From positions 1 to 11,014 of the forward strand of contig CAYJVT010000026.1 in the NCBI GenBank assembly GCA_964373695.1: 11,014 bases of DNA. Direction: 5' to 3'. Source of the stretch: an uncultured archaeon (GTDB lineage: Archaea; Aenigmatarchaeota; Aenigmatarchaeia; GW2011-AR5). This document shows positions 159 to 8,247 of this stretch, in pieces. The number at the start of each line of letters is the position of its first letter. Position 1 is the first letter of the stretch. A program made the position numbers and the translations under genes. The notes below the pieces were generated by a model that worked only from the letters and a program-made list of their open reading frames with translations, had not been told where the DNA came from and did no database searches.

Positions 159-2947
159 TGAATAAAACAACTTTTAATTCGTACATGTTTAATTCGGTAA
201 ACATTCGATCATTTGTTGTCTTCAACAACAAACTCTATGCGGGAACAAGTTCTGGTGGTAGAATACTTGTCTACGAAGAGTCTCTCGGCATACCAATAAT
301 AACATATTCATGCGTTGACCCGGCTCCTTCCAATGCCGCATTGTGCGCCGGAGACGACCAAGGCCTTTCAGGAAATGTCCAGAGGACTCTGGTTTCATCC
401 TGCACATCAGCAAAGTGCGAGTACACTTGCAATTCAGGGTTTACAAGAAGCGGCAATTCTTGCGTATCCAGCAGCAACGCTGCAGGCGCGTTGTCGATTA
501 CTACAAATTTCCCTAGCAAGGTCACCACAGCCGCGGCTTTCTTGCGCGTGAACGCCCCAGACGGCTCTTCGTGCAAGTACTCCGCTGAAACGGACTCTTA
601 TGATGTCATGAGAAGCAGGGCGTTGACAAACGCTCCATACATGTGGCTTGTCAAAGACCTGAAGAACGGTGAGAAGACGGTTTACGTAGCATGTCAAAAA
701 GGCGGAAATGAAGGAAGATTGTCTGTCAGGTTCACTGTGGAACTGCCGCAGCAGGCTTCAGTGCCAATAACCCAGAAGCCGTGCAATGAACTGACGCTGA
801 GCCAGTGCGACACCCAGTACACAAGATGCAGGAGGGTTACTGTGATAGGCACGGAGCAAATATGCGTTAACATAACTTCAGGCCAGCAGCCCGGCATTCC
901 AATAACATATTCATGCGTTGACCCGGCTCCTTCCAATGCCGCATTGTGCGCCGGAGACGACCAAGGCCTTTCAGGAAATGTCCAGAGGACTCTGGTTTCA
1001 TCCTGCACATCAGCAAAGTGCGAGTACACTTGCAATTCAGGGTTTACAAGAAGCGGCAATTCTTGCGTATCCAGCAGTGGCGCTCGGCCGCCGGAACAAA
1101 TTGCCTGTGAAGGCCGCGCGCCTTATCTTAAGGACGACGGCTCTTATATGGCAGGCATGACATGGGGCAATACTTACCGTTCAGCAGATTACACACCGAC
1201 TTCCTGGACTTACAGTGAATCAAGCGCGGTCAGTATGGGCCCGTGTACATGGAAGTGCGCCACTGGATATCAGAGGAGCGAGAGCGGTGAAACGTGTGTG
1301 CTGAAGACCACTACATCTCCTTCAGGAGATTCGTCTGGTTCGAGCTTGTCGATTACAACAGATTTCCCCAAAACTATCACCACAACCAAGGCTTTGTTGC
1401 GCGTGAACGCCCCAGCCGGCGCGTCCTGCAGGATTTCGGCTACAACTGATGTATATGACTCCATGAGAGGTGTGACGTTAACAAACTCTCCATACGTATG
1501 GCTTGCCACAGGCCTGACGGACGGCCAGAGCAAAGTATACTACGTGGCTTGCAAGGACAGGGCAGGAAATAGCGGAAAGCTGACTGTCAGCTTCGCTGTG
1601 GATTTGCCTGGTGAAGGGACCCTGTGCAGCGGCACTCCGCCTTCCGGCGACAATTACATAAGAGGCCCCTGGACTTATACCGGAACCACAGGACTTTCAT
1701 GGACATACGATGAATCCGCCACAACGTCAACTGCATGCAAATGGAAATGCGCTTCAGGTTACACAAAAAGCGGCAATTCGTGCGTCGCGGAAAGCAGCGT
1801 TGTATATGTATGCACCGGACAGATACCGCAGAACTCGCAGCTGTGTTCTGGTGACGACTCTGGATTGAGTTCGAACACGCCAATAACTTTGGTTGACTCA
1901 GACTCATGTTCGGCACCGAAATGCCAATATACATGCGTTTCCGGCTATGTCAGGAGCGGCAATTCGTGCGTTGCTGCAAGCGATAGCGGCACAGGTGGCG
2001 GAGGAGGTGAAGGCGGTGTAGTTGTTTCGGATGCCATAACGGTCAGCGAATACTCTACCATGTCCGGCAGGGTTACAGCTTCCAGCTTGGGGCTTGTGAC
2101 GGGCGGCACTGCTACGGCCGCATCTGGCACTTCCATTACCTATAGCACTTATATTGACCTTACATCTCCACAATCCGCAGATTACGAGCTGACTTATGAC
2201 AGCATGCGCGGCCGGATTTCAAGGCAGCTTAACTTCGGGTCGCTGCCTGCGGTTGCTTCAAGGAGCGCATACTTCTACAAATCAGTGGTTGAGTTTCAGG
2301 TGCCAGTGGCATTGAGCGAGATGCCGGGCATGCGGCTGAATCTGTTCGGCGCCGATTACACCGTGATAGCCGCGACGCCGACAAATATTTCATTTTTAAG
2401 GGATGCGCAGATTATCAGCGGCATAAAGCAGGGGGAAGTGAGGGAGTTCACGTTCGGCGGCCAGAAATACAGCATACATTCATCAACGATAAGGGCGTCG
2501 AGCGTTGATTCGATGCGCATCAGAAAGGAGGATGCAAGCGGCTATATGGATACATTGAGCTACTCGAGCAGTTCCGCCACGAAAGACATGGCCCAGAACA
2601 GCTTCGAAAGGTTCGGAGGCAGCGGCGGTATCGATGTCGGGCTGAAGAAAATAAATTACACATCCCTGAACAGCGCTGCGAATGACTATGAGGTCATAAT
2701 AGGGCGGAACGTAATCACGGTGGCGGAGAATTCCGAAACAAACAATCCGGGCTACTTCCTTGATGTCGAGACTGATTCCAATGGAAGGATAGCAAAGCTC
2801 GTCGTATACGTGACGAAGAGCAACGAGGGAAGGGATTACCTCATCGCCGGCGAGAAGTTCACCGATCCGTACTGGAAGAGCTTCAGGATTAAGATGGGGT
2901 CTGTCGGGGATACGCAGGCCATAATAACCGTAGAGAAAGTTGCCTGA
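2..2947 (+). CDS. Large multidomain Cys-rich cell-surface protein, 5'-partial (beta-propeller repeats, Cys-rich repeats, Ig-like modules, probable S-layer-like C-terminal domain)
   Basis: The frame of the 158..2947 ORF is open back to position 2 (KILVFNGTQWSESYDSSEEQITSLSVFNNKLYAGTFPSGKILVFNGTQWSES), so the TTG at 158 is not the real start. Modules: propeller-type blades (SLxVFNNKLYAGT..GxIL); Cys module A (C.DPAP.NA.LC.GDD.GL...C...KCEY.C.SG...SGNSCV) x3; Cys module B (C.G..P...SWTY.ES...C.WKCA.GY..S) x2; Ig-like module (LSITT.FP...LRVNAP...C..S...YD.M...L.DG...Y.AC....GN.G.L.V.F.V.LP) x2; Gly-rich linker; ~300-aa beta-rich C-terminus. Confidence 0.85.
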   Translation, partial: KILVFNGTQWSESYDSSEEQITSLSVFNNKLYAGTFPSGKILVFNGTQWSESLNKTTFNSYMFNSVNIRSFVVFNNKLYAGTSSGGRILVYEESLGIPIITYSCVDPAPSNAALCAGDDQGLSGNVQRTLVSSCTSAKCEYTCNSGFTRSGNSCVSSSNAAGALSITTNFPSKVTTAAAFLRVNAPDGSSCKYSAETDSYDVMRSRALTNAPYMWLVKDLKNGEKTVYVACQKGGNEGRLSVRFTVELPQQASVPITQKPCNELTLSQCDTQYTRCRRVTVIGTEQICVNITSGQQPGIPITYSCVDPAPSNAALCAGDDQGLSGNVQRTLVSSCTSAKCEYTCNSGFTRSGNSCVSSSGARPPEQIACEGRAPYLKDDGSYMAGMTWGNTYRSADYTPTSWTYSESSAVSMGPCTWKCATGYQRSESGETCVLKTTTSPSGDSSGSSLSITTDFPKTITTTKALLRVNAPAGASCRISATTDVYDSMRGVTLTNSPYVWLATGLTDGQSKVYYVACKDRAGNSGKLTVSFAVDLPGEGTLCSGTPPSGDNYIRGPWTYTGTTGLSWTYDESATTSTACKWKCASGYTKSGNSCVAESSVVYVCTGQIPQNSQLCSGDDSGLSSNTPITLVDSDSCSAPKCQYTCVSGYVRSGNSCVAASDSGTGGGGGEGGVVVSDAITVSEYSTMSGRVTASSLGLVTGGTATAASGTSITYSTYIDLTSPQSADYELTYDSMRGRISRQLNFGSLPAVASRSAYFYKSVVEFQVPVALSEMPGMRLNLFGADYTVIAATPTNISFLRDAQIISGIKQGEVREFTFGGQKYSIHSSTIRASSVDSMRIRKEDASGYMDTLSYSSSSATKDMAQNSFERFGGSGGIDVGLKKINYTSLNSAANDYEVIIGRNVITVAENSETNNPGYFLDVETDSNGRIAKLVVYVTKSNEGRDYLIAGEKFTDPYWKSFRIKMGSVGDTQAIITVEKVA
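298..474 (+). repeat. 177-bp exact direct repeat, copy 1 (Cys module A1)
   Basis: Identical base for base to 901-1077 (offset 603, in frame). Confidence 0.95.
901..1077 (+). repeat. 177-bp exact direct repeat, copy 2 (Cys module A2)
   Basis: Identical to 298-474. Confidence 0.95.
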
Positions 2948-2961
2948 AAACAATTCTAAGG

Positions 2962-2997
2962 ATTGATATCAATAGATGTCTATTTAAATCTTGATAT
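2962..2997 (+). promoter_or_regulatory. Putative TATA box with flanking palindromes (candidate autoregulatory operator) of the RHH gene
   Basis: Perfect palindrome ATTGATATCAAT 2962-2973; ATAGA-N2-TCTAT 2972-2983; TTTAAA 2983-2988, about 30 bp before ATG 3019; TTGATAT repeated at 2963 and 2991. Confidence 0.45.
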
Positions 2998-3018
2998 AGA
3001 TAGAATACAAGTGATATT

Positions 3019-3339
3019 ATGCAGCAGCAAAAAGAAAGCGAGCTCGTATCGGCAAGATTAAGCCCGAGGGAAATGGAAGAGATAGAAAAATTGGTAAATG
3101 AAGGATTCTACATGAATGTCGCAGATTTTGTGAGAATGTCGGTAAGGGAAAAGCTTGAATCAATAAAAGTGATAGATGTAAGAAACGTAAGCAAGGAAAA
3201 AGCACGGAATGAAATAATAAATTACATGAAAACCAACAAAAAGGCTTATCCAAGTGATATTGCCGATGGCTTGAATCTTGATTTTGACCTTGTTCTGGAA
3301 ATTGTGAAAGAGCTTGCCGGCGAGGGCAGGATAAAATGA
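3019..3339 (+). CDS. Ribbon-helix-helix (CopG/Arc/MetJ-type) regulator/antitoxin with C-terminal winged-HTH-like domain
   Basis: N-terminus VSARLSPREMEEIEKLVNEGFYMNVADFVRMSVRE fits the RHH pattern (strand, helix, G-Y-x-N/S, helix). C-terminus YPSDIADGLNLDFDLVLEIVKELAGEGRI is wHTH-like. Confidence 0.75.
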   Translation: MQQQKESELVSARLSPREMEEIEKLVNEGFYMNVADFVRMSVREKLESIKVIDVRNVSKEKARNEIINYMKTNKKAYPSDIADGLNLDFDLVLEIVKELAGEGRIK

Positions 3340-3512
3340 TTTTGAGAAACATAGGCGACGAGGTTCAGGGCGAACATATAATTTGCTTTTACAGAAAAAG
3401 AGACAGAGAGATATTATTTCCGATGACATCAGGGCACAGAGGTATTAGGCTCAAAATAAAAGGACTGCCTGCACGCGCCGTCATTGAGAAGCAAGTGGAA
3501 TTTGTAAAATAA
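3336..3512 (+). CDS. 58-aa ORF coupled to the RHH gene; possibly a degenerate RelE/ParE-like toxin remnant
   Basis: ATGA overlap with the RHH stop. Translation: MILRNIGDEVQGEHIICFYRKRDREILFPMTSGHRGIRLKIKGLPARAVIEKQVEFVK. GEHIICF...EILF..SGHRGI loosely resembles the RelE C-terminal G-x-x-R-I-I-Y...I...GHR pattern. Below the ORF-track length cutoff. Confidence 0.35.
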   Translation: MILRNIGDEVQGEHIICFYRKRDREILFPMTSGHRGIRLKIKGLPARAVIEKQVEFVK

Positions 3513-3516
3513 TCTA

Positions 3517-3910
3517 TTAAATTTTGCCGATTTTCAGATGAGGAATTTTATTGTAGTGCTCAAGATTATCAGTCAGTAAAAATGAAATTTTTTGATATCG
3601 CTGATGATGCTATCAGGATGTCAAAATCGTCTACAAGATTTCCTTTTTTCCTTAATTCATTTCTCAATTCCCCGAATTTTTTGCAGATTTTCTGGTCTAT
3701 ATATGCGACTTCGACGCCGCTTAAAAATTCCTGCAGCGCATTTTCATGCTTTTCCGTATTTTTTGAGCCAAATACGCCTTCGTAAATTTCAGCTACCGAT
3801 ATTATGCTCACGGCAAGCCCGCCTTCTGGCAGGTTTTTGATTTTTTCTACCGTTTTTTCCCTGCCTTTCAGCCAGTTTATTATCCAGTCCGTATCTATCA
3901 AATATGTCAT
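3517..3910 (-). pseudogene. vapC: VapC PIN-domain toxin with a +1 frameshift (A5 run at 3578-3582)
   Basis: PIN motifs YLIDTD, SVAEIYEG and DDFDILIASSA are present. The frame stops early at ...SKNFIFTD*. Removing one base from the A5 run restores the canonical C-terminus NFILLTDNLEHYNKIPHLKIGKI* (130 aa, stop 3517-3519). Confidence 0.85.
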
Positions 3911-5941: not shown

Positions 5942-6031
5942 GCTCCCGTAGTTTAGGCTGGATAGAATGTAAGGTTGCGGACGAATATTGGCAATTACCT
6001 TATGACCCGGGTTCAAATCCCGGCGGGAGCA
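5942..6031 (+). tRNA. tRNA-Arg(GCG) with a 16-nt intron at canonical position 37/38 (5981-5996)
   Basis: Acceptor stem GCTCCCG/CGGGAGC, discriminator A, no encoded CCA. D-loop GGAT (A20, an Arg identity element). Anticodon stem TAAGG/CCTTA, anticodon GCG 5977-5979. T arm CCGGG-TTCAAAT-CCCGG. Strict BHB: central helix TTGC/GCAA with 3-nt bulges GG|A and TT|A. Confidence 0.95.
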
Positions 6032-6752: not shown

Positions 6753-7909
6753 TGCTTTTCTGCAGACTTGTATATCTTGAGCAGGTTGTCTGCAAATCTG
6801 CCTGATGAGTATTTCCTGCCGCACGACAATGCGTTCTTTGCATACCTGCCGCCTTCGCGCATCATTTTATCCACGCCATCGGCGAACCCGTCTTCCGTGC
6901 ATACGATTCCGGTCCCGTTTTTCCTGACGAAATCGGACATTACGGGGGTGTCCAGAACCACGCACGGCAGGCCATTGGCCGCCGCCTCAAGAAGCACGAC
7001 TCCCTGCGTCTCGCTTTTTGATGCCATTACAAAAATATCGGCGGCCCTGTACATATCGGCTATGTCGCTTTCTTTCATGTATCCGGTGAAGATGATGTTT
7101 TTTTCAACGCCTAGCTTTCTGGCGAGTTTTTTGAGCACAGGCTTCTCGGGGCCTTCGGAAGTTATAACGAGCCTGGTGCCACCTTTTGCAAGAAGTCCTT
7201 TAAGAGAACTGATTACGAATCTGGGGTTCTTTTCCTTCGATACCCTACCCACATGAAGCAATATCTTCTCGGCGCCAAACCCGAATTTTTTCCTGCATTC
7301 TTTCTTTGACTTCCTGCTTATTATGTCGTCATTAATTCCAGTTGGCACGACAGATATGTCCTTCGTTATACCCTTCTCTTTTAGGAGGTTCTTAATAGAT
7401 TCTGACGGGGATATGACGGAATCCATCTGGTTGTAGAACCAAGGCAGGTATCTCCACGATAATTTATCAAACAGCATTTTCACCTCCTTTATCTGGCCTA
7501 TGAACTGCGGCCTGATGAAGTAGTGTATGTATTCGGAGAATAGCGTATGAAAAGTTCCTACGCATGGCACGTAGTATTTCCTCGTTATTCCGAGCGCCAA
7601 GGCCCCTATCGAGAACGGCGTGTGAACGTGCATGACGTCGAAGTCGAATTTCTTCAGGTTCTTGTCATTCAGGAACTCGACCGGCACGCCTATCCTGTAT
7701 TCTTTGTGGGCCATGAAGGAAATAGATGAGAATCTGTATATGCCGCCCTCGGTGTCGGTATATTTTGGCACGGACGGCGCAAAAACCATGACTTCGTGGC
7801 CCTTTTTTTCCAGCGACTTCTTCACTATCTCTATGGATGTGACGACGCCATTTATCTGCGGCCTGTAGGAGTCGGTGAACATTGCTATCTTCAAAGGAAC
7901 CCCCTCCAT
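6749..7909 (-). CDS. Glycosyltransferase family 4 (diacylglycerol-glucosyltransferase-like subgroup)
   Basis: KIAMFTDSYRPQINGVVTS, HVHTPFSIG, FHT, GRVSKEKN and SKSETQGVVLLEAAANGLP (E-x7-E). The true start may be the TTG at 7894, which has GGAGG 8 nt upstream and gives the usual MKIAMFTD N-terminus. Confidence 0.93.
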   Translation of the reverse strand: MEGVPLKIAMFTDSYRPQINGVVTSIEIVKKSLEKKGHEVMVFAPSVPKYTDTEGGIYRFSSISFMAHKEYRIGVPVEFLNDKNLKKFDFDVMHVHTPFSIGALALGITRKYYVPCVGTFHTLFSEYIHYFIRPQFIGQIKEVKMLFDKLSWRYLPWFYNQMDSVISPSESIKNLLKEKGITKDISVVPTGINDDIISRKSKKECRKKFGFGAEKILLHVGRVSKEKNPRFVISSLKGLLAKGGTRLVITSEGPEKPVLKKLARKLGVEKNIIFTGYMKESDIADMYRAADIFVMASKSETQGVVLLEAAANGLPCVVLDTPVMSDFVRKNGTGIVCTEDGFADGVDKMMREGGRYAKNALSCGRKYSSGRFADNLLKIYKSAEKH

Positions 7910-8247
7910 TGAGATTGCTCAGAAAGCAGAGCTTTCTGGCATGCCAAAGAACTTTCAGTTCTCTTCAAAGAAGTTAATCTTCTTTGAGATTCTGAAGAGT
8001 TTTGCTCTTCAAGGATTTGAGCACTCAAATCTGCAGAGGAACTGTTTAAATTTCTCCGAGATGTCAAAGGAACCTCGTTCCTTTGCACAAAACCCTGTTT
8101 TTTGGAGATTTTCATTTGCAAAGAGTATGATAACCATACTTTTAATGTTGAAATATCATTTATATTTCAGCATGCAAATCCGCTGTTCTAAAACAGCGGA
8201 TTCTTAAGCTGTTTGCCGATTGTTCGGAGAACATATTAAAGCATCGG
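7910..8247. repeat. Array of tandem, sequence-distinct short inverted repeats (hairpin/cruciform array)
   Basis: Perfect stems: 7920-7938 (8 bp), 7948-7962 (6), 7965-7987 (9), 7993-8011 (7), 8014-8031 (8), 8065-8085 (9), 8177-8202 (11). Stems with one G-T pair: 8121-8143 (9) and 8145-8173 (12). Palindromes: TGGCATGCCA 7937-7946 and TTTGCAAA 8115-8122. Also 8221-8233 nested inside CCGAT/ATCGG 8216-8247. Loops are mostly 2-5 nt. Confidence 0.9.

Follow-up and report, generated by a model that had tools for sequence, protein, structure and literature searches.

Very small palindromic repeats, probably accreted, between the divergent GT4 and carS genes of an Aenigmatarchaeota genome

The DHEs of Allomyces mitochondria are small two-hairpin repeats in the intergenic spacers of a compact genome and are seemingly mobile without a known enzyme. 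Stem-loop repeats that fill the intergenic spacers of Galdieria organelles are seemingly mobile without a known enzyme as well (PMC4316638). The REP, BIME and REPIN sequences of bacteria are mobilised by RAYT tyrosine transposases (PMC2817692, PMC3116915, PMC3733652). PATE, which are derived from IS200/IS605 elements, have no terminal inverted repeats, carry near-terminal palindromes and produce no target duplication; the SMR-A repeats of Haloquadratum walsbyi (about 110 bp), which are more than 95% alike, also show no target duplication (PMC3119063). A general census of MITEs found a high MITE density in some DPANN genomes and makes no mention of the hairpin family described here (PMC11602168).

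The genome under study (G000; 1.02 Mb in 60 contigs, 91% complete) belongs to the Aenigmatarchaeota (DPANN). Its close relatives are Candidatus Aenigmatarchaeota from groundwater, and two genomes of the same genus (G001 and G002) were used for comparison. The window analysed is the entire contig C26 (11,014 nt), in which an array of hairpins (7910–8247) sits between a divergent GT4 glycosyltransferase gene (− strand) and the gene of the CDP-archaeol synthase CarS (+ strand), as assigned by a Pfam scan of the open reading frames. Our preferred reading, to which we give a probability of roughly 0.7, is that the array has accreted from very small non-coding palindromic repeats, selfish DNA of the REP/BIME/MITE kind, and is not one functional structure. 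The hairpin family is undescribed but of known kind; no description of it was found in the searchable literature.

The array and its parts

With perfect hairpins defined by a stem of at least 7 bp and a loop of 2–7 nt, positions 7910–8247 contain seven; 2000 shuffles that preserved dinucleotides gave 0.26 on average and never more than 3. Perfect hairpins of at least 6 bp cover 53% of the region. RNAfold z-scores are −9.8 for the + strand and −7.1 for the − strand, and the minimum-energy fold has 10 local hairpins in 7919–8240, beyond which there are one hairpin over the GT4 start (7892–7911) and one degenerate hairpin (8034–8058). The array ranks second in the genome by perfect hairpins, after one at C53:2200, and is the largest by a looser definition (at least 7 pairs, one mismatch allowed), with 11 hairpins at 7891–8202.

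The original prediction had described about 12 hairpins with seven perfect inverted repeats, a GC content near 37% and a loose CAAA/TGAA bias of the arms, at a density not expected by chance. All seven inverted repeats are present where they had been placed, five of them being the repeats I4, I5, I6, I7 and I10 and two the cores of I1 and I2. About 12 is a fair count given the fold (10 hairpins plus the GT4-start and the degenerate hairpin), the computed GC content is 37.3%, the density is indeed far above that of shuffled sequence, and the arm bias is real: 58 hairpins in the genome have a CAAAG or CAAAA foot, the mean per 5-mer being 0.64, whereas no hairpin shows the reverse arrangement CTTTG...CAAAG. 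The parts of the array are as follows, R1 denoting the covariance model of the two-hairpin unit introduced below.

7892–7911, − strand: hairpin spanning the ribosome-binding site and the likely TTG start of GT4, degenerate in G000, a perfect 8-bp stem (CAAAGGAG/CTCCTTTG) in G001 and G002
7908–8015, unstranded: insertion block 1, about 108 nt, with hairpins 1–4 (three-genome alignment), edged by a TTGAG direct repeat
7912–7976, + strand: doublet D1 (R1, 67.9 bits)
7920–7938, + strand: hairpin A of D1, arms CAGAAAGC/GCTTTCTG
7939–7944, + strand: linker GCATGC of D1, between hairpins A and B
7945–7962, + strand: hairpin B of D1, 3′ arm damaged
7955–8019, − strand: doublet D2 (R1, 37.7 bits)
7965–7987 and 7993–8011, − strand: hairpins 3 and 4, which with the linker AGATTC between them are the components of D2
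8014–8031, unstranded: hairpin 5, arms GATTTGAG/CTCAAATC, the 3′ arm overlapping the 13-nt word TCAAATCTGCAGA
8026–8064, + strand: segment like the left end of a high-copy PATE-like element (CAAATCTGCAGA ... CCGAGATGT); the hairpin inside it has decayed
8065–8085, unstranded: hairpin 6, perfect 9 bp (three-genome alignment)
8086–8120, unstranded: unpaired block, the best-conserved part of the spacer (three-genome alignment)
8121–8143, unstranded: hairpin 7, 9 bp including one G-T pair, overlapping the candidate GT4 TATA box
8146–8206, unstranded: insertion block 2, about 59–61 nt (three-genome alignment), with duplicated TA at its flanks
8145–8173 and 8177–8202: hairpins 8 and 9, the components of block 2
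8205–8240, + strand: weak branched hairpin ending in the carS TATA box (fold and TATA position rule)

Several familiar classes were considered for the array and rejected. It has no constant repeat and therefore is no CRISPR array; the genuine CRISPR repeat of the genome (on C11) is unrelated apart from a 10-nt word. An array of integron attC sites would adjoin an IntI integrase and have cassettes between its hairpins, where there are only gaps of 2–8 nt. In the array Rfam gave no match at E ≤ 1, and what it returned for twelve other arrays was sub-threshold and attributable to chance; ARAGORN finds no tRNA in the window and hence none in the array. The open frame 7875–8207 (110 aa) is not a gene: it has no Pfam match and lacks an ATG in G002, and its only conserved part alters amino acids yet keeps hairpin 6. 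No recombinase gene was found among the ten open reading frames of the window that were scanned against Pfam.

Two other features of the contig deserve mention. About 577 bp of low-GC DNA (2940–3518), absent at the orthologous place in G001, encode a ribbon-helix-helix (RHH_8) regulator (3019–3339, + strand) and adjoin a PIN-domain gene (3569–3910, − strand) and a small upstream open reading frame; the segment looks like an accessory islet of the toxin-antitoxin type. A tRNA of 90 nt at 5942–6031 is found by Rfam (51.9 bits) and missed by ARAGORN, and for this reason it is probably intron-bearing. In the relative G017, hairpins of this kind are densely packed into tRNA introns.

Recurrence and turnover of the modules

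Perfect hairpins occur at 0.62–0.69 per kb in the genome overall; 331 of them lie in non-coding DNA (1.9 per kb, versus 0.36 per kb in coding DNA). There are about 15 other arrays with at least four hairpins, many at contig ends, including the start of C26. Contig ends in general, for example also C26 160–232, often fall in hairpin arrays or in a high-copy PATE-like repeat, and since G001 joins contigs C14, C26 and C2, the breaks in G000 are repeat-induced.

The individual unit has a purine-rich 5′ arm, often beginning with CAAAG, CAAAA or CAGAA, a loop of 3–5 nt (mostly 3 nt) and a pyrimidine-rich 3′ arm. Genome-wide, the gaps from hairpin to hairpin show a sharp peak at 4–8 nt and almost none measure 9–17 nt. 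The hairpins are mostly paired, the basic unit being a doublet in which two of them are joined by a 6-nt RRATGY linker with an invariant central AT. In D1, for example, the order is ATGCT, hairpin A, GCATGC, hairpin B, AGCAT. The ends of the doublet are inverted (TATGCTCA... and ...TGAGCATA), and TA flanks it on the left in 9 of 14 cases and on the right in 7 of 14.

Each hairpin sequence type is low-copy in the genome. Hairpins 1+2, 3, 3+4, 7 and 9 have one to five further copies each, at 84–92% identity, and several of the differences among module copies are two-sided so that the pair is kept. Diverged copies of D1 are found on C60, C39, C3 and C37, copies of D2 at C33:4780 (91%), C12:7801 and C1:34037 (the latter with compensated arms), and a copy of hairpin 7 at C2:39149. 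The copies of hairpin 9 at C22:1669 and C2:45588 have G-C pairs compensated to A-T pairs, and directly after each follows a TATA box. The two-hairpin unit to which these belong (C22:1620–1705 and C2:45540–45626) ends in GGATTTTTAAAC, and the TATA box in it belongs in one case to a leaderless gene and in the other to a tRNA. At 8171–8207 of the window the ending is degenerate and reads GGATTCTTAAGC. This unit may be a promoter-carrying repeat.

Beyond the genome, exact copies of hairpin A of D1 with its linker were found in 20 metagenome contigs, where the flanking sequences are unrelated, and in 11 of the 44 genomes of the family, which represent 5 of its 19 genera; a reversed control pattern gave no match. 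In an alignment of 15 copies, seven of the nine pairs of hairpin B change on both sides; the covariation score of 0.202 exceeds that of all 500 shuffles and of every slid control, and there are 2 one-sided as compared with 19 two-sided change cells. R1 yields 72 matches in the genome at E ≤ 1, counted on both strands, which correspond to about 50 places, some 35 of them at E ≤ 0.001. Three of the matches tile the array (7912–7976 on the + strand, 7955–8019 on the − strand and, weakly, 8026–8096 on the + strand, where the PATE-like segment and hairpin 6 together give 22.5 bits, E 0.027). Of the 70 genomes of the order 48 are matched. The number of matches in a genome ranges from 0 to about 60, and from 0 to 29 inside one genus; two families of the order are almost without matches. 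In sampled genomes of other genera, 8-bp hairpins are in three- to seven-fold excess, and these genomes, too, contain arrays. In viral contigs neither the doublet nor a PATE-like end was found.

The near-perfection of the stems could also be explained if the palindromes arose and stayed perfect in situ by template-switching during replication (fold-back synthesis and correction of near-palindromes) and by local duplication, the arrays being mutational hot spots without any transposition. Stems that are nearly always perfectly Watson-Crick paired, the rarity of one-sided changes in hairpin B, the resemblance of hairpins 2 and 3 to a partial tandem duplication, the TTGAG direct repeat that bounds block 1 and the lack of a linked transposase are all consistent with it. 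It does not account for the recurrence of identical 25-nt modules, linker included, across 5 of 19 genera and 20 metagenome contigs whose flanks are unrelated, for feet and linkers that are sequence-specific, or for a copy number that varies widely among close relatives. Since dispersal fits module identity, specific feet and linkers and the swings in copy number better than independent origin does, we consider an origin in situ unlikely.

Comparison with the relatives shows that hairpins are gained and lost in blocks. The GT4-carS spacer measures 120–200 nt in G001 and G002 versus about 380 nt in G000, CarS being 84% and 70% identical, respectively, to its G000 orthologue. Block 1 is absent from the orthologous place in both relatives and block 2 from that in G001, and in the three-genome alignment both are present in G000 alone. 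Common to all three are hairpins 5–7 and the unpaired block 8086–8120. The orthologues of hairpin 6 are perfect in all three genomes with purine-tract arms that differ (GGAAC, GAAGC, AGAGC), and at the counterpart of 8026–8064 G001 has a near-perfect 10-bp hairpin. In G001 the sequences of contigs C14, C26 and C2 are united in one 55-kb contig, and along this synteny at least five further hairpin blocks (62–200 nt) are each found in one genome only, in both directions. Every such block is a mosaic of modules with copies at other places in G000. Several junctions could be resolved and show 2-nt AT or TA duplications; IS200/IS605 elements make no such target duplications. No full-length donor copy of block 1 or block 2 was found in the assembled genome, and with a conserved 29-mer as query no strain variants of the GT4-carS locus were found in metagenomes. 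It should be noted that block 1, because it is bounded by a 5-nt direct repeat, is also explicable by slippage or by repeat-mediated deletion in the relatives.

One of the differential blocks concerns a promoter. In G001 a block of 176 nt (C37 2343–2520; compare G000 C14:10533) separates the ATG of a leaderless gene from its TATA box. The block supplies a TTTTATAG of its own at a distance of 27 nt from the ATG, as though insertions survived only if they restored the promoter.

Transcription context

In 187 occurrences among the upstream regions of 426 genes, TATA-like hexamers cluster with their start 27–31 nt before the ATG, and words of the Shine-Dalgarno type are rare in this genome. From these two properties together it follows that most genes are leaderless. 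For carS, the first base of ATTAAA (8235–8240) is 29 nt ahead of the ATG (8264), an arrangement shared by about 44% of genes, and a 5′ leader of carS was rejected on this ground; with this geometry carS would be leaderless and most of the array would lie upstream of its promoter.

GT4 has no TATA box at −29 and has GGAGG (7907–7903) 8 nt before a TTG at 7894, from which the protein would start MKIAMFTD; it thus needs a leader. A candidate TATA box, TTAAAA, is present on the − strand at 8145–8140 and would place hairpins 1–6 inside this leader. Part of the array therefore probably lies in the 5′ leader of GT4, and by the same promoter geometry the unpaired block 8086–8120 is the probable region of transcription start. 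The ribosome-binding-site hairpin has a counterpart elsewhere: GT4 (7892–7911) and an NAD-dependent epimerase gene (C1:34069–34088), unrelated genes of sugar metabolism, both open TTG-AAG-ATA and have GGAGG and the TTG start within a CAAAGGAGG...CCTCCTTTG hairpin.

The array, or its GT4-proximal half, could accordingly be thought of as a structured 5′ leader RNA on the − strand that tunes translation or stability, with the GGAGG/TTG hairpin as a switch. This would agree with the leader that GT4 needs, with the position of the candidate TATA box, with the − strand z-score and with a ribosome-binding-site hairpin that is perfect in G001 and G002 and recurs before the epimerase gene. Hairpins 1–4 are absent from the leaders of both relatives, however, so they are not needed; the same modules occur in spacers of all orientations; Rfam has no match; and G-U pairs favour no consistent strand (the G-U versus A-C changes are too few and mixed in direction). 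A regulatory leader is for these reasons improbable as the explanation of the array. It also overlaps with the preferred reading as a cluster of repeats, because inserted repeats can be transcribed passengers, and some hairpins may be put to use by the cells, for example that over the GT4 ribosome-binding site.

Divergent, tandem and convergent spacers are equally rich in hairpins (1.5–1.9 per kb), and 24–26% of each orientation kind carry at least one hairpin. Such evenness speaks against any role at the ends of transcripts, and a function as terminator or 3′ end was rejected on these grounds; for the same even spread, a reading of the array as a precursor of small RNAs is unnecessary.

Finally, the palindromes might be operators or architectural sites, bound by dimeric proteins, through which the divergent promoters of GT4 and carS on either side are organised. 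The hairpin 9 copies that abut a TATA box at two other loci, and the G001 insertion that brings a TATA-like box at the right distance from the start codon, would suit such a role. At least ten different sequences would call for many proteins, though, and the arms co-vary for pairing and not for a consensus half-site; the relatives lack most of the sites, and the spread over spacer types is even. We regard this as very unlikely.

Mobilising enzymes and comparison with known systems

The genome has one intact Y1 gene (C52:1357–1749) and one fragment. The intact protein scores 97 bits against the NCBIfam model of IS200/IS605 TnpA and 19 bits against that of RAYT (cut-off 80), and no RAYT was found in the genome. 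Among 31 relatives the Y1 gene was found in 7, and G001, G002, G005 and G006, all rich in doublets, gave no hit for it; with so patchy a distribution the link to Y1 transposase as mobiliser failed. Neither an IS630 (DDE_3) nor an IS110 transposase was found in the genome. IS630-type genes are present in 10 of the 70 genomes of the order, and a link of these to the doublets was rejected because the IS630 ends in relatives match a 95-bp double-hairpin MITE instead. No insertion sequence with ends matching the doublet was found.

A PATE-like repeat has at least 12 copies in the genome, with the left end CAAATCTGCAGATTCCAC and, at the right end, a CCACCGT...ACGGTGG hairpin followed by TCATTGACA. 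The 3′ flank of the sole intact IS200 tnpA (C52) has this end hairpin in common with the repeat, TCATT following in both, which is why the repeat is regarded as a PATE-like relic family. It carries a variable cargo of mini-hairpins; the window contains no more of it than the 13-nt word at its end, TCAAATCTGCAGA, and a hairpin in decay (8026–8064).

The right hairpin of the 95-bp MITE has extra mini-hairpins nested in its loop at C16:11031–11141 and none at C32:5518–5565, and in metagenome contigs the doublet is found exactly between both hairpins of MITEs of the 95-bp type. The CRISPR repeat of 37 nt (C11:8250–8420 and 11915–12250) adjoins Cas12f-like genes; the 10-nt word AATCTGAGAT is found both in it and inside the PATE-like repeat, possibly by chance.

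The preferred reading can be put as a sequence of events. Hairpins and doublets would be copied to new intergenic places by an enzyme acting in trans, new copies would favour sites beside or inside existing hairpins, and recombination between copies would then reshuffle the modules, with the result that spacers become back-to-back mosaics. In the GT4-carS spacer, hairpins 5–7 and a relic resembling an IS200-type element end would form the older core. Into it the 108-nt block seen in the alignment would have been inserted in this lineage, probably into the putative GT4 5′ leader, and the 59–61-nt block between the predicted divergent TATA boxes. The preserved pairing would reflect either a need of the mobilising enzyme for the hairpin or repair of one arm with the other as template. 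A more radical version is doubtful: the single mini-hairpin (about 24 nt between two AT) would itself be the mobile unit, the smallest known, added beside or into hairpins by an enzyme that is host-encoded or is an IS200-type TnpA acting on single-stranded DNA hairpins. Each insertion would recreate its own target, so that spacers would lengthen as polar hairpin chains, some of them taken over as 5′ leaders or promoter modules.

Of the three readings that the original prediction offered, the first is supported, by which the hairpins constitute a structure-defined palindromic element family of the REP/RPE/MITE kind, as is borne out by copies elsewhere with pairing-preserving changes, by blocks gained or lost between G000, G001 and G002 with the pairing of hairpin 6 kept despite changed arms, by the two-sided changes and by an order-wide distribution. 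The original prediction was also right in excluding a CRISPR array, there being no constant repeat, and a terminator, the density being equal in all three kinds of spacer. Its argument that almost exclusively Watson-Crick stems point to a structure at the level of DNA is reasonable but not decisive. A linked nuclease or recombinase, which it had envisaged, was not found at the array, the sole HUH/Y1 gene being an ordinary IS200-type TnpA on another contig. Nor is the array the best candidate for an undescribed system, since it is a composite of several small elements of familiar kind and not one system.

What follows is that a gene-dense DPANN genome of 1 Mb still hosts a rich population of miniature palindromic repeats, which make promoters and leaders differ from one close relative to another and cause breaks in metagenome assemblies. 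In annotation, hairpin-rich spacers, introns and contig ends of Aenigmatarchaeota should be treated as repeat clusters and not as new RNAs or defence arrays. The model R1 can be used for masking such repeats.

Of the known systems, REP, BIME and REPIN share most of the organisation: short extragenic palindromes (20–40 nt) that occur as singles, inverted doublets and mosaic clusters with short linkers, in which compensated changes preserve pairing and whose copy number differs between close relatives. They differ in the head, which is GTAG or CGTC in REP/BIME/REPIN, whereas the feet here are CAAAG, CAAAA, CAGAA or TGAAA and the linkers RRATGY, and in the cognate single-copy RAYT flanked by repeats, which this genome lacks. 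Moreover, classical REPs are of few high-copy types; here there are many low-copy types, with arms of purine and pyrimidine tracts, in a DPANN host.

With the PATE and SMR-A repeats of Haloquadratum the family has in common an archaeal genome full of small repeats that are free of transposase and whose mobilising enzyme is unclear, relics of IS200/IS605-type ends with near-terminal palindromes, and an apparent preference of the small repeats for inserting into other repeats and their palindromes. Unlike SMR-A, the units here are 25–65 nt long and heterogeneous, and several junctions have a 2-nt AT/TA duplication. Hairpin MITEs (Correia/NEMIS, RUP and IS630-derived elements; PMC11602168) resemble the doublets in being non-autonomous, intergenic and nested, with inverted ends and often TA flanks. 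The units are much smaller than typical MITEs, however, and the genome is without a DDE_3 gene; an IS630-type element of the relative G058 has ends like those of the 95-bp double-hairpin MITE and unlike those of the doublet. To the organelle repeats of Allomyces and Galdieria there is a resemblance only, hosts and sequences being unrelated.
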